The position numbers were made by a program, and so were the translations under genes. From a phage: a stretch of 64,000 nt of DNA. The notes beneath the pieces are model-generated. The model searched no databases, was not told the DNA's origin, and saw only the letters and a program-made list of their open reading frames with translations. The stretch lies in sequence record PZ534512.1. The stretch is one strand, 5' to 3'. Shown here one piece after another: positions 8,352 through 54,017 of the stretch (positions within the stretch are counted from its first letter, which is position 1; the number at the start of each line of letters is the position of its first letter).

Positions 8352-8909
8352 ATGCAGAAAACGAATCCGGGTTTACAGAGACTATTTCAGATTCCGACAT
8401 TTACCCTATCGAACAGTGACTTGACTAGTGAAATGAAGGTCAAAATTGCTGATACAGCAAGATACTCTTTAAAACAAAACCCGAACCAGGATAAAGCAGA
8501 AGTTATCGAAAGATGCCGTATCGCTGTGTACGCAGAGTTTTTTGTGGCAGATTGGCTAAGCGGATATGTCAATAAAGGCCAAGAAAATGTCGATGATCCG
8601 TACACGTATGCATGGGATGTTTTAGCGCATCCAAAATATTGCGGGCTTCGTGTAGAAGTCAAAACACATCAAACTGACTCGCGTTGGATTTCGGTAACAA
8701 CGGGATGCAGCGGAGAGTATCCATATGGTTCTGGAATAAATTTAGGGCCCATTCTAAATCATCAAGTCGCTGACTGTATAATTATATTCAACACTAAAGA
8801 AATTCATCCAGGTGTCATCCAGTACACTCCGAAGTTCATCGGTGACAGAGAAGACCTTCGTAGGGTTGTAAGAAAAAGCAACTACAACGGATGGTATCTT
8901 TCCATTTAA
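8352..8909 (+). CDS. denB: endonuclease IV
   Basis: 185 aa, size and map position between rIIB and ndd match T4 denB. Confidence 0.75.
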   Translation: MQKTNPGLQRLFQIPTFTLSNSDLTSEMKVKIADTARYSLKQNPNQDKAEVIERCRIAVYAEFFVADWLSGYVNKGQENVDDPYTYAWDVLAHPKYCGLRVEVKTHQTDSRWISVTTGCSGEYPYGSGINLGPILNHQVADCIIIFNTKEIHPGVIQYTPKFIGDREDLRRVVRKSNYNGWYLSI

Positions 8910-8925
8910 AAAATTTCACAAAACA

Positions 8926-8956
8926 GTTTACATACCACAAGGACCGTGGTACTATA
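8926..8956 (+). promoter_or_regulatory. early promoter (GTTTAC ... GGTACTATA)
   Basis: cacaaaacagtttacataccacaaggaccgtggtactatacaactatcaactac; same conserved block recurs at 12566 and 29102. Confidence 0.5.
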
Positions 8957-8993
8957 CAACTATCAACTACTGATACGGATTTGGAGAATAAAA

Positions 8994-12515: not shown

Positions 12516-12545
12516 GGGAGAGCCTCGGCTCTCCCTTTTTTATTT
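12516..12545 (+). terminator. intrinsic terminator
   Basis: gggagagcctcggctctccc followed by tttttatttt. Confidence 0.65.
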
Positions 12546-12565
12546 TAAAATTTTTTCACAAAACG

Positions 12566-12596
12566 GTTTACAACCAAAGCATACTGTGGTACTATA
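12566..12596 (+). promoter_or_regulatory. early promoter upstream of motA
   Basis: cacaaaacggtttacaaccaaagcatactgtggtactatacaactatcaactac. Confidence 0.5.
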
Positions 12597-12636
12597 CAAC
12601 TATCAACTACTGATACAGAATTACGGAGATTAGAAA

Positions 12637-16041: not shown

Positions 16042-16593
16042 TTATACGTAATGCTTGAATAAACGCTTATACCAAGGTTTCCGTTCTTTTTCAGGCCATG
16101 AAGGGAATTCACCACCTAAATGCTCATGCTTTTCTAAAAGAGCAAAGAACCGCTTAAGGTTTTTATAATAAAATTTTTCCTTTTTATTGGCGACAGAAGC
16201 TTCAATCATATTATTTAAAACTTGGAACTCTTTATATAATTCTTCAATTTTTCTATTACGAATTAAAACTCGCTTATATGTTTCGTCTTCTTTCCAACCG
16301 TCATCAGTCCATATATCAAATTCGCCAGGCTCATCAAAAGTTATACCAACCGGGCTTCCAATTTCACTTATAAAAATTTCTTCTTTATTAAAAGTCCATG
16401 CTCGTTTTCCGCGATGGTCTTCTTCATAAATCCAATCCTGAGTACGTTCATCAAATACAACTGCATATCCTTCTTTAGGTTCTAAAGGTTTTTTAATTGT
16501 TGAATGAGCAGGAAGACCGAGGCCTTTAACCGGTTTGTAATTTTCTTCTTTGTAAAATTCTTTAGTGTCAAAATAATAATGATATATTTTCAT
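16042..16593 (-). CDS. 38: long-tail-fibre assembly chaperone gp38 (T4-type)
   Basis: 183 aa, MKIYHYYFDTKEFYKEENYKP... as recalled for T4 gp38. Confidence 0.85.
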   Translation of the reverse strand: MKIYHYYFDTKEFYKEENYKPVKGLGLPAHSTIKKPLEPKEGYAVVFDERTQDWIYEEDHRGKRAWTFNKEEIFISEIGSPVGITFDEPGEFDIWTDDGWKEDETYKRVLIRNRKIEELYKEFQVLNNMIEASVANKKEKFYYKNLKRFFALLEKHEHLGGEFPSWPEKERKPWYKRLFKHYV

Positions 16594-16620: not shown

Positions 16621-19600
16621 TTATGCTAAACGAACGATATAGTTAAAAGCAATGTTTTTAACCGTGTTTTCTGTATTACCTGTACTATTTACAGTGATAG
16701 TATGACCATGCGAGCCAATTGCTACCGTGTGGGTATGAGCACCGATACCTACAGTATGGGTATGAGCACCAATACCTACTGTGTGAGCATGGTTACCTGT
16801 AGTGCTTGTAGTACCAGACCAAGTATGAGTATGAGCACCGTCTGAAGAAGTTTTGGCTATATTCGACCCTGCAGTAGCACCGTTCACGGTTCCAGTGAAT
16901 TTAGCGTTGGCGTTTGCACCTACACTATTATATCCGTCATAGAATATGTTATTGGGTATGCCGGCTTGTATCTGAGGACCTGAGCGCGCATGTTGGTGTG
17001 CACCAGCAGAACTCGTAGTACCGCTTACAGTATGAGAGTGGTTACCTGTGGTATTGCTAGTCTTAGTGCCATAGTCAAAGCTACTTGTCGTCTTAGTACC
17101 ATAATCAAAACTCGACGTAGTTTTAGTACCCAAGTCAGTACTTGAAGCCGATGCACTATGGCTATGAGCCTTAACACCATCGGCTTCTGCGCTTAATACA
17201 GCTCGACCACTTGGTTTACCTTTAATAGTTTGCCCGCGCATATCTGGAATTACGCCAGATGGGTAAGCCATAGCCAATTTTGGGTATGCAGACTTATCAA
17301 AAGTCTGGCCTTCCATAATAGCGTAACCGTCAGGAGGAGTATCCGTTGGCCATGGAATAGGAGCACCGATTGGGTAACTCGATACAATATCGGTTTTAAG
17401 TGATTCAATTGTACTGTTTAAATTAGCAAAATTGCCAGAACCACCTGTAATATTGCCGTCTGTACCTAAATAAACTGAACCACCAGCAGAAACACGCTTA
17501 GGAGATATAAAATCACCATTTTTGTTAAATTCCCAACCTAAATCCTTTATAATAGCGCCAGTCGAACCGCCATCGCCGCCTTCATGATAATGAACTCTGA
17601 AGTTACCGCCGTTAATTAGAGTTCCCAGAGAATAACAACTGTAAATTTTTGTTAAATTCCCAACCTAAATCCTTTATAATAGCGCCAGTCGAACCGCCAT
17701 CGCCGCCTTCATGATAATGAACTCTGAAGTTACCGCCGTTAATTAGAGTTCCCAGAGAATAACAACTGTTTCCTTGGACATATCGTTGTTTCAAAATAGG
17801 AACGTAAGTACTTGTATCTGTACGATTAATATTCATATAGAATGGAGCACGAACGTTTTCATTATTTTGTGAAGCAAAAGACCCTGCACCAGCCGGGCGA
17901 ACTGTGTCAGTACATTCAGCATCAATATAAGCTGCTTGTCCTACCTGCATACGGTAATTAGGAGAAATGCGACTATTACTAGTAACAACAACAAGTTTGG
18001 TATCGTTGTCCACAGTAATCATATTACCGCCAGCGCCATCATCGCCTAACGTAACAGAATGGCGCATTTGTACCATACCATTATTAAGACTAATACTAAG
18101 TGGGCGGAGATTACTTATTCCACCACTTTCACCGGCATCTTTAGGAGTCGGGATAATATGTAATGCTGTTTCTGAGCGACGGAAAATAGCACCGTATTCG
18201 GCATTCCAAATTCTTAATGCATCAGCAGTTCCACCAATTTTTACTTGTCCAGTAATAGAAGAACCACCTTGGACAAACAAACCATTAGACATGGTAACAT
18301 TACCGACTAAAGTGCTTAATCCATTAACTTTAAAACTTCCGTCAGTAATAATACTTCCTCTAGCATTAACTTGTCCATTGAACTGGGTTACAACAGGCCC
18401 AGTAGTTTCAGAGCCACTTGGAGCCACACGCTGTGAATAAAAATAATATCCTTGTCCATCAGCTACTTCAAAAACCGTTTCACGATTACGATCGCCAGAT
18501 GCGTTAAATGAATTACCCCATGCTTTAACAGTTACATAGCTTTTATTCTGACCAGCACGAGTACCGCCTTCCCACAAAATTTGCTTAGTGCCATCAATTG
18601 TAGTAGTTGGAGCGAATGTTAGCCCAGCAGTAGAATTATTAGCTGCTAAATATATGCCATTATATATTGAAAGCTGCTTAACAGATGTAATACCGCCATC
18701 AGCATAAAACATTACATTATTAGAGCCAGTTACCAATTTCAAAATACCCGGGTTAACTTCCATGCCTTCTTGAGTATTAATATTAGTTTTGCCTTTACCA
18801 CGGAAATAGTGGTTCATTTTTCCGCCTGAGTTATAGCCAATATGCGTCTGGCCGTCTCCAGCAGTGTTTTCATCAGCTTGTGTTTGAACCGATAAAAACG
18901 CGGCGTTGGTTCCAGGCATAATCCATGTTGTACCTTGGTCCTCGGAACGACCAAAAATCGCTTTACGGGTACTACGGAAACTATCAGGAGTAATAGATGC
19001 TAAAGAAAGACCACTAGCAACTAAATCATATACTCCAGTTTTTTTGTATGATAAGCCTGTTGATGCATCACCGATAACTATATAACATTCGCCCATTGCT
19101 CCAGCGGAGCCGTAGTTATTAATGTTTTCATCTGTTGTAATTGTACCAATTGCGAGTGAGCGTCGTAATACTAAAGCCCCATCATTACGAAGACCCATTT
19201 GTTTATTAACGGCTGTATTACCAGTCCACCAAGAAAGTTCATCACTTTTTCCGGTTTGCGCAGAAGCTAATTCATGATAAATTGTACCGCCTGATTTAGC
19301 TCGAACTTTACGAAGATAGTTTATACCATTTTCTTCGCCTGTTCCAGGATAAACATATTGAACTAATGATTGCGAATCGTATTGTCCAAATGCTTTTGTA
19401 TCTAAAATAATATTTTTAGTATTAATCTGAGGCGAAGTAATATTTCCAATAGCTGCAATATTTCCAGATGTAGTTATACTACCTCCTGATACTGCTAAAC
19501 CTCCACCGTCAACAGTAAATCCGCCGTCACGTCGAAACGTCCAATATTTCGAATCGCCAGATTCATTGATATAATGAATCTTCAACGAACCTTCAGAAAC

Positions 19601-20023
19601 TAAAGTACCTAATGAAAAAGTTCCATCTTTAAAGCGCTGTTTAATTATAGGATTATATTCAGATGTGGAAGTAGCTGAGCTTAAATCTACAAAAATTGGA
19701 GCTTTCGCAGTATGTTGACCGGACCAAGCCCCACTTCCAGTAGTACGATAATTAAACTCAATATATCCACCGCTTGCTACAATTTGCGGACCAATTAAAT
19801 TAAATTTTCCAGTCTGTGTATAATCACCAGTTTGAGTGATATTACCACTGATATTACCGCCAGTAGAAATGCTTAAATCGATGATATTTCCTGAATCATC
19901 TTTAGTAAAAATTGTTCTATCTTTTAAGTTTATAGCCAATTCACCTTCGGCTAATACTGAAGCAGCAGGACGTGCACCTGCGGTTTTGCTTCTTTTAAAT
20001 TGTATTTGTTTTAAAGTAGCCAT
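16621..20023 (-). pseudogene. 37: long tail fibre distal subunit gp37, reading frame interrupted by a 127-bp tandem duplication
   Basis: N-terminal 803-aa ORF (17612-20023) stops 10 codons into the second repeat copy; C-terminal part continues in the +1 frame to 16621 with His-box tip ...[39 protein letters not shown]; removing one copy gives one 1091-aa ORF. Confidence 0.85.
17518..17771. repeat. direct tandem duplication, 2 x 127 bp (125 bp identical plus 2-nt junction)
   Basis: 17518-17642 is identical to 17645-17769. Confidence 0.95.
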
Positions 20024-20031
20024 AAGTCCTC

Positions 20032-20697
20032 TTAATAATAGCCGAAATCTTGAACAGAATCTTTAATTACGATTTGGTCAAATCGTGGAACATGTGAAGG
20101 TTGAGACGCAGGATTCTGTGAGAAAAAGTTTGGCGCGGTTAAATTACCTATCATAGTGTCGCCAGAACGCAACACTCTAGAGTTCGCATTTGCTGTAACA
20201 GTATTTATTGCTCCATCAACATAGTCCTTTCTAGTAAGGTCATTCGCTGCTATAGGAGCAGCTGCATCACTTCTTACTTGACCTGCCGCAGACACAACAC
20301 CTTTTGTATTAATATCACCATTACGTGCATTAATTACAACAGTTCGGGCTGCTGAACCTTGCGATGATTTAAAACCAATACCATTCCACGAAACAATATC
20401 GATATTTGCTACAGCAAAAGTAGCATTATCACCGTTACCTGGATAAACACCGCATGGGTTTGTGTTGTTTACAGCATACGGAACTTGAACTCCACCGTTA
20501 AATGTTACCTTTGATGCATAAGTACCACCATTAGCTTTAGAAACGAAATCGTTATCAGCAGCTTGTGGTTTATTATATTCTGAATATATTTTAAATGATT
20601 TATAGAGTACATCGTCACCGGCTGGATTCAATGGAAAATTTCCTTGATGCCAAATGACAGAGCCTCCGGTTGTTGAACCTACTTTTAAATCAGCCAT
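20032..20697 (-). CDS. 36: long tail fibre distal connector gp36
   Basis: 221 aa, position between 35 and 37. Confidence 0.85.
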
Positions 20698-29080: not shown

Positions 29081-29101
29081 TTAAAATTTTTTCACAAAAC
29101 A

Positions 29102-29132
29102 GTTTACATCCTTGTCCTTCCATGGTACTATA
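29102..29132 (+). promoter_or_regulatory. early promoter
   Basis: cacaaaacagtttacatccttgtccttccatggtactatacaactatc. Confidence 0.5.
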
Positions 29133-29174
29133 CAACTATCGGCAATACTGCTGATGATTAAAGAGGAAAATAAT

Positions 29175-29449: not shown

Positions 29450-29815
29450 ATGTATATCGGCAAAAAGTATGAACTTGTTCCAAGACTTATTGATACATTT
29501 ATTAATTATCGCCCACGTTCTAATTCATCAATAGTTAAAATTATTCAAGAAAATGGAGGATGGTTTGAAGTTAAAGAAGCTTTCTTTGTTGATGGATTTA
29601 GAGTAATAAAACACATTGAATGCGCAAATGGAAAGCATTTTTACTTTAACGTTTGTGAAGACGAATTTCATTGTTTTCGTGAGTATAAAGAACCGACTTC
29701 TGAAGAAGATGAAGTCAAAGACGAGGTTTATGGCGTAACAAAAATTCACTGCATTGTTGACGAAAACAATGTAGATGAAATCATTGAACTTTTGCGAAAA
29801 ACTTTTAAGGCCTAA
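29450..29815 (+). CDS. hypothetical protein
   Basis: 121-aa ORF. Confidence 0.6.
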   Translation: MYIGKKYELVPRLIDTFINYRPRSNSSIVKIIQENGGWFEVKEAFFVDGFRVIKHIECANGKHFYFNVCEDEFHCFREYKEPTSEEDEVKDEVYGVTKIHCIVDENNVDEIIELLRKTFKA

Positions 29816-33024: not shown

Positions 33025-35279
33025 TTAATGTTATCAAAAGTAGTGGTGTTTCTCAGAGCTTCGACCCACAAAAAATTATTAAAGTTTTATCTTGGGCAGC
33101 TGAAGGAACATCAGTAGATCCTTATGAATTATATGAAAATATTAAATCTTATCTCCGTGATGGAATGACAACTGATGATATTCAGACTATTGTCATTAAG
33201 GCTGCTGCGAATTCTATTTCGGTTGAAGAGCCTGATTACCAATATGTAGCTGCACGCTGTTTAATGTTTGCTCTTCGTAAGCATGTTTACGGGCAGTATG
33301 AACCGCGTTCATTTATTGACCATATTTCTTATTGCGTAAATGAAGGGAAATATGACCCTGAATTATTGTCAAAATATTCTGCGGAAGAAATTACATTTTT
33401 AGAATCAAAAATTAAGCACGAGCGGGATATGGAATTTACTTATTCCGGAGCGATGCAATTAAAAGAAAAATATCTAGTCAAAGATAAAACCACCGGTCAA
33501 ATTTATGAAACTCCGCAGTTTGCATTTATGACTATTGGAATGGCACTGCATCAAGATGAACCTGTTGATAGATTAAAACATGTTATCCGTTTTTATGAAG
33601 CAGTATCTACTCGACAGATTTCATTGCCAACTCCTATTATGGCTGGTTGTCGTACTCCGACTCGACAGTTTAGTTCATGTGTTGTTATTGAGGCAGGTGA
33701 TTCATTGAAGTCTATCAATAAGGCTTCCGCTTCAATTGTTGAATATATCTCTAAACGCGCTGGAATTGGTATTAACGTTGGTATGATTCGTGCTGAAGGT
33801 TCTAAGATTGGTATGGGTGAAGTACGCCATACCGGTGTTATTCCTTTTTGGAAACATTTTCAGACTGCAGTTAAATCATGCTCACAGGGTGGAATTCGTG
33901 GCGGCGCTGCTACTGCTTATTATCCTATTTGGCATTTGGAAGTTGAAAATCTTCTCGTTTTGAAAAATAACAAAGGCGTAGAAGAAAACCGCATTCGTCA
34001 TATGGATTATGGTGTTCAGCTGAATGATTTGATGATGGAACGATTCGGAAAGAACGATTACATTACTTTGTTCAGTCCGCATGAAATGGGTGGCGAGCTT
34101 TATTATTCTTATTTTAAAGACCAAGACCGTTTCCGTGAATTATACGAAGCAGCAGAAAAAGACCCTAATATTCGTAAAAAGCGTATTAAAGCCCGTGAAC
34201 TATTTGAATTGCTCATGACTGAACGTTCAGGAACAGCAAGGATTTATGTGCAGTTCATTGATAATACGAATAACTATACTCCGTTTATTCGTGAAAAGGC
34301 ACCTATTCGTCAGAGTAACTTGTGCTGTGAAATTGCTATTCCAACAAATGATGTGAACAGTCCTGATGCTGAAATTGGATTGTGTACTCTCTCTGCATTC
34401 GTACTAGATAATTTTGACTGGCAAGACCAAGATAAAATTAATGAATTGGCAGAAGTTCAAGTTCGTGCTCTTGATAATCTTTTGGATTATCAAGGATATC
34501 CAGTTCCTGAAGCAGAAAAAGCTAAAAAGCGTCGTAACCTCGGTGTAGGTGTTACCAACTATGCGGCTTGGCTGGCAAGTAACTTTGCTTCTTATGAAGA
34601 TGCTAACGATTTAACACATGAACTATTTGAGAGATTACAGTATGGACTCATTAAAGCATCCATTAAGCTCGCCAAAGAAAAAGGACCTTGCGAATATTAT
34701 TCAGACACTCGTTGGTCTCGAGGCGAATTACCTATCGACTGGTACAATAAAAAGATTGACCAAATCGCAGCTCCAAAATACGTTTGTGACTGGTCGTCGC
34801 TGCGGGAAGACCTTAAGCTCTTTGGCATCCGTAATAGCACATTATCAGCACTTATGCCATGTGAGTCATCTTCCCAAGTTTCTAACAGTACAAACGGTAT
34901 CGAGCCTCCACGTGGACCAGTCTCTGTTAAAGAATCAAAAGAGGGCTCCTTTAATCAAGTCGTGCCCAATATTGAGCATAACATAGACCTCTATGATTAT
35001 ACATGGAAATTAGCTAAGAAAGGTAATAAACCTTATCTTACGCAGGTAGCTATTATGCTGAAATGGGTTTGTCAATCAGCTTCAGCGAATACATACTATG
35101 ACCCCCAAATCTTCCCTAAAGGCAAGGTTCCAATGTCAATAATGATTGATGACCTTTTGTATTTCTGGTATTTTGGCGGAAAAAATTTCTATTATCATAA
35201 TACCCGTGATGGTTCTGGTACTGATGATTATGAAATAGAAACTCCAAAAGCTGAAGATTGTTCATCCTGTAAATTATGA
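33015..35279 (+). CDS. nrdA: ribonucleotide reductase large subunit
   Basis: 754 aa, class I RNR alpha. Confidence 0.93.
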   Translation: MQLINVIKSSGVSQSFDPQKIIKVLSWAAEGTSVDPYELYENIKSYLRDGMTTDDIQTIVIKAAANSISVEEPDYQYVAARCLMFALRKHVYGQYEPRSFIDHISYCVNEGKYDPELLSKYSAEEITFLESKIKHERDMEFTYSGAMQLKEKYLVKDKTTGQIYETPQFAFMTIGMALHQDEPVDRLKHVIRFYEAVSTRQISLPTPIMAGCRTPTRQFSSCVVIEAGDSLKSINKASASIVEYISKRAGIGINVGMIRAEGSKIGMGEVRHTGVIPFWKHFQTAVKSCSQGGIRGGAATAYYPIWHLEVENLLVLKNNKGVEENRIRHMDYGVQLNDLMMERFGKNDYITLFSPHEMGGELYYSYFKDQDRFRELYEAAEKDPNIRKKRIKARELFELLMTERSGTARIYVQFIDNTNNYTPFIREKAPIRQSNLCCEIAIPTNDVNSPDAEIGLCTLSAFVLDNFDWQDQDKINELAEVQVRALDNLLDYQGYPVPEAEKAKKRRNLGVGVTNYAAWLASNFASYEDANDLTHELFERLQYGLIKASIKLAKEKGPCEYYSDTRWSRGELPIDWYNKKIDQIAAPKYVCDWSSLREDLKLFGIRNSTLSALMPCESSSQVSNSTNGIEPPRGPVSVKESKEGSFNQVVPNIEHNIDLYDYTWKLAKKGNKPYLTQVAIMLKWVCQSASANTYYDPQIFPKGKVPMSIMIDDLLYFWYFGGKNFYYHNTRDGSGTDDYEIETPKAEDCSSCKL

Positions 35280-35330
35280 TATAATTTGACTCATGGACGA
35301 GTCACTATCTATTAACTAAGTGGAAAATTT

Positions 35331-38127: not shown

Positions 38128-38180
38128 GTTTACAAGTCCCTCATGTTGTGTTATAGTAATCTTACTGACATAACATGAGG
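38128..38180 (+). promoter_or_regulatory. early promoter embedded in inverted repeat that includes the alc RBS
   Basis: gtttacaag, -10 tatagt; arms cctcatgtt / aacatgagg; near-identical copy at 53957-54009. Confidence 0.5.
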
Positions 38181-38188
38181 ACTTTATG

Positions 38189-39556: not shown

Positions 39557-40773
<1,217 letters not shown>

Positions 40774-41503: not shown

Positions 41504-42031
41504 ATGAGCGAATGGTTTGAAGAAGATAAGGTTTATCGCTTTAAAACTGGGTATAAAGATATTTTTAATGAAACTTGCGGGGCTAATAAACGAATTGCCC
41601 AGTTTATTGGGGAAAATTCATTTAAAGTAAAAATAGATCCTGCGAAAAATGTTATTAGCATTAAACACGAAATTGATGATTGCTGGTATAAAGCTATTGA
41701 TGTAATGGGCGAATCCTATAAAGATAGCCCGTTATTTTCAATTGCTTATATGTTAGAATATTCTTTTTTCGAAGAAGTTCAAAAAGATGATTCTGTCAGT
41801 AAATTTGAAATTAAAGCTGATAAAGAAATTAAGTGGAAAGTAGTAGGTATTACTGGTTGTATGTTTTATATCTATGCTCAAACTGATACGAAGGAAGAAG
41901 CTAAAAAGAAAGCTCTAGAATATCTTGAAGAGTATGAAGAAGGTCCGGTAATGATTACTCAAGATGCTGAATTAGTTTCTGTCAAATTAGTTAAAAATGT
42001 TGAAAGTAAGGAGCTGGGATCAACATGCTAA
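41504..42031 (+). CDS. hypothetical protein
   Basis: 175-aa ORF after promoter-like sequence 41443-41476. Confidence 0.6.
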   Translation: MSEWFEEDKVYRFKTGYKDIFNETCGANKRIAQFIGENSFKVKIDPAKNVISIKHEIDDCWYKAIDVMGESYKDSPLFSIAYMLEYSFFEEVQKDDSVSKFEIKADKEIKWKVVGITGCMFYIYAQTDTKEEAKKKALEYLEEYEEGPVMITQDAELVSVKLVKNVESKELGSTC

Positions 42032-49571: not shown

Positions 49572-49756
49572 AAGCTTACTTAGAAACAATTGTCGTGGCT
49601 CAAAAAGAAGGTGGAGATGTTTCTACTTCTGTATCACAAATCATGATTGAATTTATAGATGCATATGCTTATAATAAATTCACAGAAACTTTTGATGCTT
49701 ATGAAAAAGGTCCAAAGTTTGAAATATATCGTACTCTCTTACCAATAGATTATTAA
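49568..49756 (+). CDS. hypothetical protein
   Basis: 62-aa ORF followed by GGCCTTCGGGCC hairpin at 49755-49772. Confidence 0.5.
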   Translation: MKAYLETIVVAQKEGGDVSTSVSQIMIEFIDAYAYNKFTETFDAYEKGPKFEIYRTLLPIDY

Positions 49757-49777
49757 AGGCCTTCGGGCCTTTAATTT

Positions 49778-49785
49778 TATAAATA
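49778..49785 (+). promoter_or_regulatory. late promoter TATAAATA upstream of first alt-type gene
   Basis: exact tataaata. Confidence 0.5.
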
Positions 49786-49808
49786 GAATAAACACTAGAG
49801 AGGATATG

Positions 49809-51896
49809 ATGGAACTCATTACAGAATTATTTGACGAAGATACTACTCTTCCGATTACAAACTTAAATCCAAAGAAGAAAATACCACAAATTTTTTCAGT
49901 TCACGTTGATGATGCAATTGAACAACCAGGATTTCGTTTATGTACCTATACATCTGGAGGTGATACTAATCGCGATTTAAAGATGGGCGATAAAATGATG
50001 CATATTGTTCCTTTTACATTAACTGCTAAAGGTTCAATTGCTAAATTAAAAGGTCTTGGTCCAAGCCCAATTAATTATATCAATTCAGTTTTTACTGTTG
50101 CAATGCAAACAATGCGTCAGTATAAAATTGATGCCTGTATGCTCCGTATTCTTAAGTCTAAAACCGCTGGTCAAGCTCGACAAATTCAAGTTATTGCTGA
50201 TAGACTTATCCGTAGTCGTTCAGGTGGCAGATACGTCCTTCTTAAGGAACTCTGGGATTACGATAAAAAGTATGCATATATTCTTATACATCGCAAAAAT
50301 GTATCACTAGAAGACATTCCAGGAGTTCCAGAAATTAGTACCGAGCTCTTTACTAAAGTTGAATCGAAGGTCGGTGATGTTTATATCAATAAAGATACTG
50401 GAGCTCAAGTAACTAAAAATGAGGCAATTGCAGCATCTATTGCACAAGAAAATGATAAACGTTCTGACCAAGCTGTAATCGTTAAAGTTAAAATTTCCCG
50501 TAGAGCAATTGCGCAAAGTCAATCGTTAGAGTCTTCTAGATTTGAAAGTGAATTATTCCAGAAGTATGAATCTACTGCAGCTAATTTCAATAAACCTGCT
50601 ACCGCTCCTTTAATTCCCGAAGCAGAAGAAATGAAGCTTGGAATTAATTCATTAGCTTCTAAAACTAAGGCAGCAAAAATTATTGCTGAAGGAACTGCAG
50701 ATGAACTTCATTATGACTATAAATTCTTTTCAAAAAGTGAGGTTAATGAAGTTTCTGAAAAAATTAAAGATGTAATTCTTAATGCGATTAAAAATGAACC
50801 AACTACTTCAATAAAATGTTTAGAGAAATACGCAGCAGCTGTTAATCAACTCTTTGAAGAATATAAAGATAATTGGCTTGATAAACATAATAAAACTCGT
50901 AAAGGGCAGCCAGATGAAGTCTGGGAAGAAATAACTAAAAATGCCTGGAATGCAGCAAAAACTAAATTCCTCAAACGAATGATTTATAGCTTTTCTGGAA
51001 TTGGTGCTGGTCCAATGATTGATATTACTATTGCCCGTGATGGTTCTAAATATACTCCATCACAAAAGCGCGGCATTAGAGAATATTGTGGTTCAGGATA
51101 TACAGACATTAATAATCTTCTTTTAGGTCGTTACAATCCAGAACGATATGATGTAATGAGTGAAAAAGAAATTGAATCTGCTATAAATAATTTAGATTCA
51201 GCTTTTGAAAATGGTGACCGCATACCGGAAGGCATTACAGTTTATCGTGCTCAAAGTATGACTGCTCCTATATACGAAGCGCTAGTTAAAAATAAAGTGT
51301 TCTATTTCAGAAATTTTGTATCTACTTCTTTAACTCCTATCATTTTTGGGCGTTTTGGAATTACACATGCTGGTATTGGTCTTTTAGAACCAGAAGCTCG
51401 TAATGAATTAACAGTTGATAAAAATGAAGAAGGAATAACTATTAATCCAAACGAAATAAGAGCGTATAAAGAAAATCCTGAATACGTTAAAGTTCAAATA
51501 GGATGGGCAATTGACGGCGCGCATAAAGTTAATGTTGTATATCCAGGAAGTCTCGGAATAGCAACAGAAGCTGAAGTTATTCTACCGCGCGGATTGATGG
51601 TCAAAGTTAATAAAATAACTGATGCTTCTAATAATGACGGAACAACATCTAATAATACAAAACTCATTCAAGCTGAAGTTATGACCACAGAAGAACTCAC
51701 CGAATCAGTAATCTATGACGGAGACCATTTAATGGAAACTGGTGAATTGGTTACAATGACAGGTGATATAGAAGATAGAGTTGACTTTGCATCATTTGTT
51801 TCATCAAATGTTAAACAGAAAGTAGAATCATCTCTTGGAATTATTGCGTCTTGCATAGATATTACAAACATGCCTTACAAGTTCGTTCAAGGATAA
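49809..51896 (+). CDS. alt: Alt-family ADP-ribosyltransferase paralog 1
   Basis: 695 aa from ATG 49809; N-terminus MELITELFD; ART motifs YRAQS, FVSTSL, EAEVILPRG. Confidence 0.75.
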   Translation: MELITELFDEDTTLPITNLNPKKKIPQIFSVHVDDAIEQPGFRLCTYTSGGDTNRDLKMGDKMMHIVPFTLTAKGSIAKLKGLGPSPINYINSVFTVAMQTMRQYKIDACMLRILKSKTAGQARQIQVIADRLIRSRSGGRYVLLKELWDYDKKYAYILIHRKNVSLEDIPGVPEISTELFTKVESKVGDVYINKDTGAQVTKNEAIAASIAQENDKRSDQAVIVKVKISRRAIAQSQSLESSRFESELFQKYESTAANFNKPATAPLIPEAEEMKLGINSLASKTKAAKIIAEGTADELHYDYKFFSKSEVNEVSEKIKDVILNAIKNEPTTSIKCLEKYAAAVNQLFEEYKDNWLDKHNKTRKGQPDEVWEEITKNAWNAAKTKFLKRMIYSFSGIGAGPMIDITIARDGSKYTPSQKRGIREYCGSGYTDINNLLLGRYNPERYDVMSEKEIESAINNLDSAFENGDRIPEGITVYRAQSMTAPIYEALVKNKVFYFRNFVSTSLTPIIFGRFGITHAGIGLLEPEARNELTVDKNEEGITINPNEIRAYKENPEYVKVQIGWAIDGAHKVNVVYPGSLGIATEAEVILPRGLMVKVNKITDASNNDGTTSNNTKLIQAEVMTTEELTESVIYDGDHLMETGELVTMTGDIEDRVDFASFVSSNVKQKVESSLGIIASCIDITNMPYKFVQG

Positions 51897-51899
51897 ATC

Positions 51900-53957
51900 A
51901 TGGAACTTATTACAGAATTATTTGACGGCGCTTCGGCGCCGGTTGTTAACTTAAATCCTAAGCATAAAATACCACAAATTTTTGCTATCCAAGCCGGCGA
52001 AGAAAGCGTGCTTCCTGGATTTAGATTTTGTACATACACCTCTGGTGGTGATACAAATAAAAACGTTAAGCCAGGCGATAAAATGATGCATATCGTAATG
52101 ATAGGTGTCAATGAGAAACTATCATTAGTTAAGCTTAAAAACTTGGGTGGAAATCCAATTGGTGTCATTAATGCCGTTTTTGATACTGCTCTTCAAACAA
52201 TGAAACAGTATAAAATCGACGCATGCCTATTCCGCGTACTAAAGAGTAAAACAAATGGCGCAGCTCGTCAAATGCAAGTTATTGCTGACCGTTTAGTACG
52301 TACTAAGGGAGCAGGTCGATATGTTCTCTTAAAGGAAATCTGGGACTATGATAAGAAATATGCATATATTATGGTTTACCGTAAAAATGCCAATTTAGAA
52401 GACATTCCAGGTGTACCTCCTATTTCAACTGAGTTATTCACAAAAGTTGAATCAAAGGTTGGTGATGTTTATGTAGACGTTAAAACAGGTAATGCTGTTC
52501 CTAAAGCTGTCGCTGTTGCTGCTTCTATTGCTTTAGAAAATGATAAGCGCACTGATCAAGCTGTTATTCAGAAAACTAAAATTAGTCGTCGATTAGCAGC
52601 ACAAGCTCAATATTCTACTGTTGATGCTTCACTTCAGGGTGATAGCTTCGCTGCCAAGAAATATCAAGAGTTTGAATCTAAAGTTCCGGTATATAAAGCA
52701 GAAGGACCAATGAACTCTGGCGTTATCCAGATTGGTTCAAACTTCAGCAAAGGAGCTATCGGTGGTATGAGAAGTGCTTCTCGTTTTAAATCTAATGATT
52801 ATGAACTAGAAAGTTTCCGAAATCATATTGCATTGACCCATGCACGTTTACGCGATCCATCTATCAAGCTGCAGAGCGATATAACATATCAAGGTTCTCA
52901 AGAATATTTAAAGAATAAAGAATTCTTTGATTATAAAACTGATAAAATTTTAAGCGATCTTGCTGACATTAATATTTCTAATAGCTTTGATGTTATTAAG
53001 AAAATTATCAATGATTTAGTTAAAGATTCTAAAGCTACATCAGATGAAAAGACAGCTATTATTCAATTTGTAATGAATGGCATTTATAAATTGATTAATG
53101 AATCTGCTGCTCAGGCATATGAATATGCAAGTACTGAAGTAACTCCAAAAGGACTGACTCAGGCTGAGTCTGATGTAATTGAAGATTATTGTGCAGATTC
53201 ATATGTTGAAATGAACTCGTTCCTCTTGGGTAAACCAGATTCTACCCGTGAAGAATACATGGAACGAGCTATTAAACACATCGAGACGCTGGATTCTGCA
53301 TTCGCCAAAGGATCAGTTCTTCCTCCGGGAACTACGCTTTATCGTGGACAAGAAGTTACTTTTAAAACTTTACGCCATAATATTGAAAATAAAATGTTCT
53401 ATTTCAAGAACTTCGTATCAACATCGCTTAAACCAAATATCTTCGGTGAGCATGGTAAAAACTATATGGCTCTAGATGATTCCGGCGCAGTATTTTCTGG
53501 TGAAGGAGAAGGTTCTGTTGATGCCGAAGATTTAATGCATATGGGTAGTCATTCTGCATATGCTAATGAAGATGCTGAAACTAGCGTAGGTATGGTAATT
53601 AAAGGGGCTGAACGAATCAAAGTTATCGTTCCAGGTCATTTATCAGGATTTCCATCAGAAGCTGAAGTTATTCTACCACGTGGAATTTTGTTGAAGATTA
53701 ATAAAGTAAGCACGTACATGATGAAAGAAACTGCTTATAACAAGTATCTAATCGAAGGCACAATCGTTCCTCCTTCTGAACAATTAGAAGAATCGGTATA
53801 TGATGGCGATCATCTAATGGAAACTGGCGAAGTTCGTCCAATGGCTGGGTTTAATCAATTCCTTGTAGAAGAATCAAAAGAAGAGGAAAACGAAGTTTCT
53901 CAAATCTTGGCTTCTTTGGTTAACATCAACGGAATGTCTAAAAAGTTCAAGATGTAG
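51900..53957 (+). CDS. alt: Alt-family ADP-ribosyltransferase paralog 2
   Basis: 685 aa; N-terminus MELITELFD; ART motifs YRGQE, FVSTSL, EAEVILPRG. Confidence 0.75.
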   Translation: MELITELFDGASAPVVNLNPKHKIPQIFAIQAGEESVLPGFRFCTYTSGGDTNKNVKPGDKMMHIVMIGVNEKLSLVKLKNLGGNPIGVINAVFDTALQTMKQYKIDACLFRVLKSKTNGAARQMQVIADRLVRTKGAGRYVLLKEIWDYDKKYAYIMVYRKNANLEDIPGVPPISTELFTKVESKVGDVYVDVKTGNAVPKAVAVAASIALENDKRTDQAVIQKTKISRRLAAQAQYSTVDASLQGDSFAAKKYQEFESKVPVYKAEGPMNSGVIQIGSNFSKGAIGGMRSASRFKSNDYELESFRNHIALTHARLRDPSIKLQSDITYQGSQEYLKNKEFFDYKTDKILSDLADINISNSFDVIKKIINDLVKDSKATSDEKTAIIQFVMNGIYKLINESAAQAYEYASTEVTPKGLTQAESDVIEDYCADSYVEMNSFLLGKPDSTREEYMERAIKHIETLDSAFAKGSVLPPGTTLYRGQEVTFKTLRHNIENKMFYFKNFVSTSLKPNIFGEHGKNYMALDDSGAVFSGEGEGSVDAEDLMHMGSHSAYANEDAETSVGMVIKGAERIKVIVPGHLSGFPSEAEVILPRGILLKINKVSTYMMKETAYNKYLIEGTIVPPSEQLEESVYDGDHLMETGEVRPMAGFNQFLVEESKEEENEVSQILASLVNINGMSKKFKM

Positions 53958-54009
53958 TTTACAAGTCCCTCGTGTTGTGTTATAGTAGTCTTACTGACAT
54001 AACATGAGG
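53957..54009 (+). promoter_or_regulatory. early promoter embedded in inverted repeat (copy of element at 38128)
   Basis: gtttacaagtccctcgtgttgtgttatagtagtcttactgacataacatgagg. Confidence 0.5.
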
Positions 54010-54017
54010 AACACAAA

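Follow-up and report, generated by a model that had tools for sequence, protein, structure and literature searches.

A perfect 127-nt tandem insertion that breaks tail-fibre gene 37 of a T4-like phage is probably of assembly origin

Introduction

Why does a T4-like phage genome, as written, carry a gene 37 that stops before the receptor-binding tip of the distal long tail fibre? In the 64-kb stretch of phage DNA analysed here (the window), the gene is interrupted by a 127-nt tandem insertion, for which the first-pass annotation had offered three readings: a real and unstable duplication mutant, translational recoding, or an assembly artefact. The last of these is the best supported because of the 127-nt length of the insertion, its unique junction, the zero divergence of its copies and the lethal genotype that it creates. 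The unstable mutant stays as a rival, while recoding fell away for want of both conservation and a stimulatory structure.

The phage and its tail-fibre region

The window is part of a T4-like genome (Tequatrovirus), and its closest records are of the teqdroes type, for example FelixPlatter, with approximately 98% identity over 25 kb. The long-tail-fibre genes 34, 35, 36, 37 and 38, followed by the holin gene, occupy 15.3-25.8 kb on the minus strand. The genes on either side of gene 37 are intact:

20032..20697, minus strand: gp36 distal hinge connector, intact.
16042..16593, minus strand: gp38-type chaperone of tail-fibre assembly, intact, with 100% identity to gp38 of FelixPlatter.

The quality of the sequence was assessed by translating the 105 annotated FelixPlatter CDSs and comparing them to the window by tblastn. 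Ninety-nine of the 105 match the window in one unbroken frame, any gaps being in frame, and of these 99 one is cut solely by the window start; three have no counterpart in the window and two lie upstream of its start. Gene 37 is the only gene of the 105 tested that is split between frames. Since the 99 other CDSs are unbroken, the lesion in gene 37 is isolated and is not a symptom of indel-rich sequence, and a generally poor assembly was rejected as an explanation on the same ground.

Several further differences from FelixPlatter were recorded along the window. Only 54 nt (35277-35330) separate nrdB from nrdA, at a place where FelixPlatter has a 642-nt putative homing-endonuclease gene, and two more small FelixPlatter genes (49610-50199 in that genome) are without counterpart. 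The window has an extra 175-aa ORF (41504-42031, plus strand) in a segment of about 530 nt that is absent from FelixPlatter; its exact sequence is absent from a 15-billion-protein index. A putative homing-endonuclease-like protein (39557-39865) shows 57.5% identity to its FelixPlatter counterpart and contains a 21-nt tandem repeat of 2.5 copies (39669-39721), and a hypothetical protein (29450-29809) shows 39% identity.

Dispersed repeats were also observed. Direct repeats of about 78 nt occur four times (942-1019, 8905-8982, 12545-12622 and 29081-29158), with 64-79% identity to the reference copy. Each has a promoter-like core, TTTACA...TGGTACTATA, which in three of the four copies continues with ATCAACTACTGATAC; the four are probably T4-type early promoters with a common leader. 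A 54-nt repeat, 96% identical between 38128-38181 and 53957-54010, combines GTTTACA with an inverted repeat (CCTCATGTT...AACATGAGG). It precedes two gene blocks that lie far apart and has the look of a promoter with a hairpin.

Anatomy of the repeat

Two identical 125-nt copies with a period of 127 nt and a 2-nt junction had been reported within gene 37. Direct reading, Tandem Repeats Finder (17518-17769, period 127, 2.0 copies, 100% matches, score 504) and a repeat search of the 64-kb window all return this structure. Its parts, in the order in which the ribosome meets them, are:

17645..17769, minus strand: copy A, 125 nt, in the correct gp37 frame, from the second base of codon 752 to the last base of codon 793.
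17643..17644, minus strand: filler, 2 nt, 'TT' on the gene strand ('AA' on the plus strand).
17518..17642, minus strand: copy B, 125 nt, 100% identical to copy A, out of frame in frame 0 and encoding wild-type gp37 in the +1 frame.

A perfect match of 125 nt cannot arise by chance. The repeat is the sole perfect tandem array within the 64 kb, and the repeat search found no other perfect repeat of k-mer size in the window.

The structure is a 125-nt copy with a 2-nt filler rather than a clean 127-nt unit present twice. On the gene strand, FelixPlatter reads CCAAGGAA|ACAGTTG...(125 nt)...AACAAAAAT|GGTGATT, so that the wild type at this site is GGAA|ACAG...AAAAAT|GGTG. The window reads GGAA-[125 nt]-TT-[125 nt]-GGTG, and the novel junction is AAAAAT-TT-ACAG. 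The filler differs from both wild-type flanks, 'AA' upstream and 'GG' downstream, and was seen in none of the relatives compared. A variant allele was considered as its template and rejected, as the GGAA and GGTG flanks are also those of the more distant relatives ATK47 and GiZh. The endpoints GGAA|ACAG and AAAT|GGTG share no base and so show no microhomology, and two filler nucleotides stand at the junction.

Consequences for gp37

The length of the insertion is 3 x 42 + 1 nt, and the stop comes 10 codons past the junction. The open frames that result are as follows:

17612..20023, minus strand: gene 37 ORF as it stands, truncated to 803 aa, starting with the ATG at 20023 and ending with the TAA stop at 17614-17612; N-terminal shaft of the distal long tail fibre.
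16621..17664, minus strand: rest of gene 37 in the +1 frame, 347 open codons (17664 to 16624), stop at 16623-16621.
17615..17664, minus strand: overlap of both open frames, 50 nt, with the generic leak sites AAC-AAA-AAT (17653-17645) and TCT-AAT-TAA-C (17620-17611).

The break in the frame had been described correctly in the first-pass annotation, including the stop ten codons into the second copy, and the last ten residues of the 803-aa product are indeed that copy read out of frame. Its claim that the truncated product would lack the His-box tip likewise holds. The 803-aa ORF has no Pfam domain, and the +1-frame part contains the collar domain PF07484 with phage-fibre repeats and matches the solved T4 gp37 tip, 2XGF, with E=7e-96. 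The 803-aa product is consequently without the collar, the needle and the receptor-binding head, the last being the part of gp37 that contacts LPS and OmpC (PMC5221442). Finally, removal of 127 nt (one copy with the filler) restores a single 3276-nt ORF of 1091 aa, as had been predicted for the deletion of one copy. Reinitiation yielding a nearly full C-terminal part was rejected, since the +1 frame has no ATG, GTG or TTG before 17316.

Two natural tandem arrays, both in frame, are found in the tip-encoding part of gene 37 on the minus strand. The first (16715-16785) has 2.6 copies of a 27-nt unit with 81% matches and encodes GIGAHTHTV His-box units, while the second (17058-17130) has 2.4 copies of a 30-nt unit with 76% matches and encodes 10-residue units. 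Each holds one extra unit relative to the solved T4 tip, visible as gaps in the 2XGF alignment, and both are common to all close relatives. By their form, these arrays resemble the in-frame gene 37 duplications that are reported to change T4 host range.

Comparison with other sequences

Alignment to relatives gives an insertion of exactly 127 nt. The site spans 401 nt in the window and 265-274 nt, corresponding to a single copy, in every phage record covering it (62 records with at least 80% coverage, among which a duplicated record would have ranked first). In seven public contigs with an identical gp35 and a whole gene 37, gp37 is intact, with a length of 1091 aa in six and 1058 aa in one.

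The repaired gene 37 has 100% DNA identity over 3276 nt to an independent metagenome contig, k119_145955 of ENA ERZ27288125 (hereafter L003), and differs by 1-4 nt from four other loci, those of FelixPlatter, KMB22 and 101117BS1 and that of a metagenome scaffold in ENA. Only four Logan/ENA contigs encode the exact 1091-aa protein. The flanks of L003 differ from the window by 0.2-0.8%, the gp34 region by about 0.8%, and the window therefore belongs to a different phage with the same fibre allele. Such a pattern of sequence identity suggests that Tequatroviruses which are otherwise distinct have recently exchanged the distal-fibre module.

The duplicated form itself was not encountered elsewhere. 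The 38-mer spanning the junction was not found in IMG/VR, JGI metagenomes or GTDB genomes, and megablast gave no match to the duplication in 50,697 phage records or in E. coli genomes. Exact-protein indexes (including the one of 15 billion proteins) contain neither the 803-aa product nor the 231-aa ORF downstream of it, and they also lack the window's own gp34 and several other proteins specific to the window. Because neither these proteins nor the junction were matched, the phage is without an independent copy in the collections searched.

A probable artefact of assembly or finishing

The insertion is probably an artefact of assembly or finishing that lies outside the functional genome. Its length equals the maximal SPAdes k-mer, and it is absent from independent assemblies and from relatives. 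The copies diverge neither from each other nor from the intact allele found elsewhere, and the event is therefore without evolutionary age. The missing microhomology also counts for an artefact, as classical slipped-mispairing duplications usually show it.

The genetics of T4 points in the same direction. Nonsense mutants of T4 gene 37 produce fibreless, non-infectious particles, and the very active homologous recombination of T4 would quickly remove a 125-bp tandem repeat under such selection. As the loss of gene 37 is lethal and the repeat would be rapidly resolved, the allele should not be the consensus of a propagating stock.

A plausible route to the insertion can be proposed. T4-like genomes being circularly permuted, a short-read de Bruijn assembler would give the circular path as a linear contig, in which the last k bases repeat the first k. 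This overlap would measure 127 nt at the usual top k of SPAdes (also of MEGAHIT at k-max 127). If the untrimmed contig were then rotated or joined, the overlap would turn into an internal 127-nt tandem duplication at an arbitrary place, which here would be gene 37. The error could have been introduced at assembly, circularisation, re-orientation or finishing, and the real gene would encode an intact 1091-aa gp37, as in all relatives.

Artificial end overlaps of 127 bp, or artefactual direct terminal repeats (DTRs), are described for SPAdes contigs of circular or permuted phages, where they need to be trimmed (PMC5923482, PMC7372960, PMC9331655). A preprint on INPHARED similarly states that SPAdes short-read assemblies can yield artefactual DTRs, with no length given (bioRxiv 10.64898/2026.05.06.722914). 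According to one of the three former sources, PhageTerm rearranges contigs automatically, and a rearrangement of this type is the kind of step that makes a terminal overlap an internal tandem repeat.

The insertion thus looks like an artefact of the untrimmed-overlap type, yet it is no textbook member of that class. Only 125 of the 127 positions repeat, and a textbook k=127 overlap fails on the 'TT' filler, so that an extra step, such as an end error, a manual join or a gap closer, must be assumed. No simple k=127 graph could be made to yield 'TT', and polishing was rejected as its source on theoretical grounds only, since reads mapped at these positions would give 'AA' or 'GG' but never 'TT'. 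A precedent was sought in the one other unrotated record checked, that of TH09, whose first base lies within gene 37, but its ends do not overlap. Taking the length, the perfection and the uniqueness of the repeat together with the frame break, we infer an assembly origin for the insertion.

A possible real and recent duplication

Possible, if rather unlikely, is a real and very recent spontaneous tandem duplication (125 nt with 2 filler nucleotides) in the DNA that was sequenced, resulting in a loss of gene 37 function. The duplication could have been carried by a defective subpopulation that was picked by the assembler and complemented at high multiplicity, or by a dead-end variant. The carrier phage would make a truncated distal half-fibre and remain non-infectious until recombination dropped one copy.

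The duplication is, after all, present in the sequence as given, and the rest of the window is clean, which makes the sequence otherwise trustworthy. The 2-nt filler is as compatible with illegitimate joining as with any simple model of an assembler. Against this stands the exact coincidence of the total length with k=127. No short direct repeat is present at both endpoints, contrary to what is expected from slipped mispairing or unequal crossover.

In favour of a real event, gene 37 is known for duplications (PMC4281060 and PMC7002106, citing Tetart et al. 1996), and it already has two natural tandem arrays. However, these natural repeats keep the frame, with units of 27 and 30 nt, and have diverged to 76-81% matches, in both respects unlike the 127-nt repeat. 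A second sighting was found in none of the collections searched. Judging from T4 genetics, the genotype would be lethal where plaques have to form, and within one or two passages it would revert or lose out to competitors.

Recoding and other candidates

A real duplication whose frame break is overcome by recoding, so that full-length gp37 is still produced, is very improbable. A net +1 event would be confined to 17664-17615, because only there are both frames open. Three routes to full-length gp37 can be envisaged. By the first, tRNA-Lys would slip by +1 at AAA-A (17650-17647), and the product would be 1133 aa long, with 42 aa cleanly inserted. By the second, tRNA-Asn would hop from AAT over the TAA stop to AAC (17617-17611), again giving a fibre with a 42-aa insertion. 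The third would be a gene-60-like bypass from a codon of copy A to its counterpart in copy B, which would yield the wild-type fibre.

The 50-nt overlap with its two sequences permitting +1 re-pairing speaks for these routes, as does the standing of T4 as the classic home of translational bypassing (gene 60). Nevertheless, the duplication occurs in no relative, all of which have one ORF of 1091 aa (or 1058 aa), so that nothing is conserved or selected. The AAC-AAA-AAT motif is plain wild-type sequence, and no Shine-Dalgarno-like element is present at prfB-type spacing. Folding of the downstream RNA is no better than that of shuffled sequences (z=-0.07), and a run as short as A5 would not allow transcriptional slippage to be efficient. 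Without a stimulator, recoding events of this kind occur at 1% or less. With neither structure nor conservation, and with generic leak sites only, programmed recoding was rejected.

It would be far-fetched to suppose that the tandem duplication is rapidly gained and lost as a reversible on/off switch of the long tail fibre, or that a real duplication is tolerated through low-level +1 recoding or hopping in the 50-nt overlap, supplying some full-length fibre with a 42-aa insertion. Among the neighbours of the repeat (gp34-38, holin, asiA and arn), neither a reverse transcriptase (RT) nor an endonuclease is found; a diversity-generating retroelement (DGR) was dismissed, the copies being 100% identical and adjoining, with no adenine-specific mismatches and no RT annotated nearby, and a mobile element or intron was dismissed as well, the insert being an exact copy of adjoining gene sequence.

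Significance for annotation

Should the insertion be an artefact, the record needs 127 nt removed, and gene 37 should have a single annotation as a receptor-binding fibre of 1091 aa in place of two fragments or a pseudogene. A record corrected in this manner would keep host-range predictions and tail-fibre catalogues from being misled. The case is also a reminder to screen re-oriented phage genomes for perfect internal tandem repeats of k-mer size. If the duplication were real, it would be an ordinary loss-of-function mutation in a well-understood essential gene, notable only if stable or recoded, for which the present analysis gives no support. The finding matters for the annotation of receptor-binding fibres and not as new biology.

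Comparison with known systems

The repeat described here shares with the duplications of Tetart, Repoila, Monod and Krisch (1996) its tandem form and its place in gene 37 of a T4-type phage. These are the nearest genuine precedent in biology: in T4, in-frame duplications of His-box segments of gene 37 widen the host range, as PMC4281060 and PMC7002106 report with reference to Tetart et al. 1996. As these citing papers present them, those duplications are in frame, lie in the receptor-binding tip and leave the fibres functional, whereas the 127-nt repeat is out of frame, its length not being a multiple of 3, and destroys the protein. Its location differs too: the repeat corresponds to codons 752-793 of 1091, while the collar starts at about codon 861 and the His boxes lie further downstream. 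Compared with the natural arrays of the same gene, the 127-nt repeat is neither in frame, nor diverged, nor common to close relatives.

With the two overlapping open frames whose fusion gives the full protein, the locus recalls prfB +1 frameshifting and the bypass of T4 gene 60. Unlike these, the window has neither a conserved shift site nor a stimulator; it lacks the architecture of take-off and landing, and the arrangement is conserved in no relative. The classical T4 tail-fibre frameshift and duplication nulls share with it the predicted outcome, namely a truncated gp37, no distal half-fibre tip and no adsorption. In contrast, those were kept as conditional mutants or under complementation, and one has no reason to expect that the consensus of a wild isolate would carry such an allele.

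The untrimmed SPAdes end overlap at k=127 has in common with the insertion the 127-nt length, the perfect copies, a location arbitrary to gene structure, the lack of any relative that shares it and a circularly permuted genome. The two differ in that the insertion is internal, which would require a later rotation or join, and in that 125 nt repeat, with two junction bases that match neither flank.
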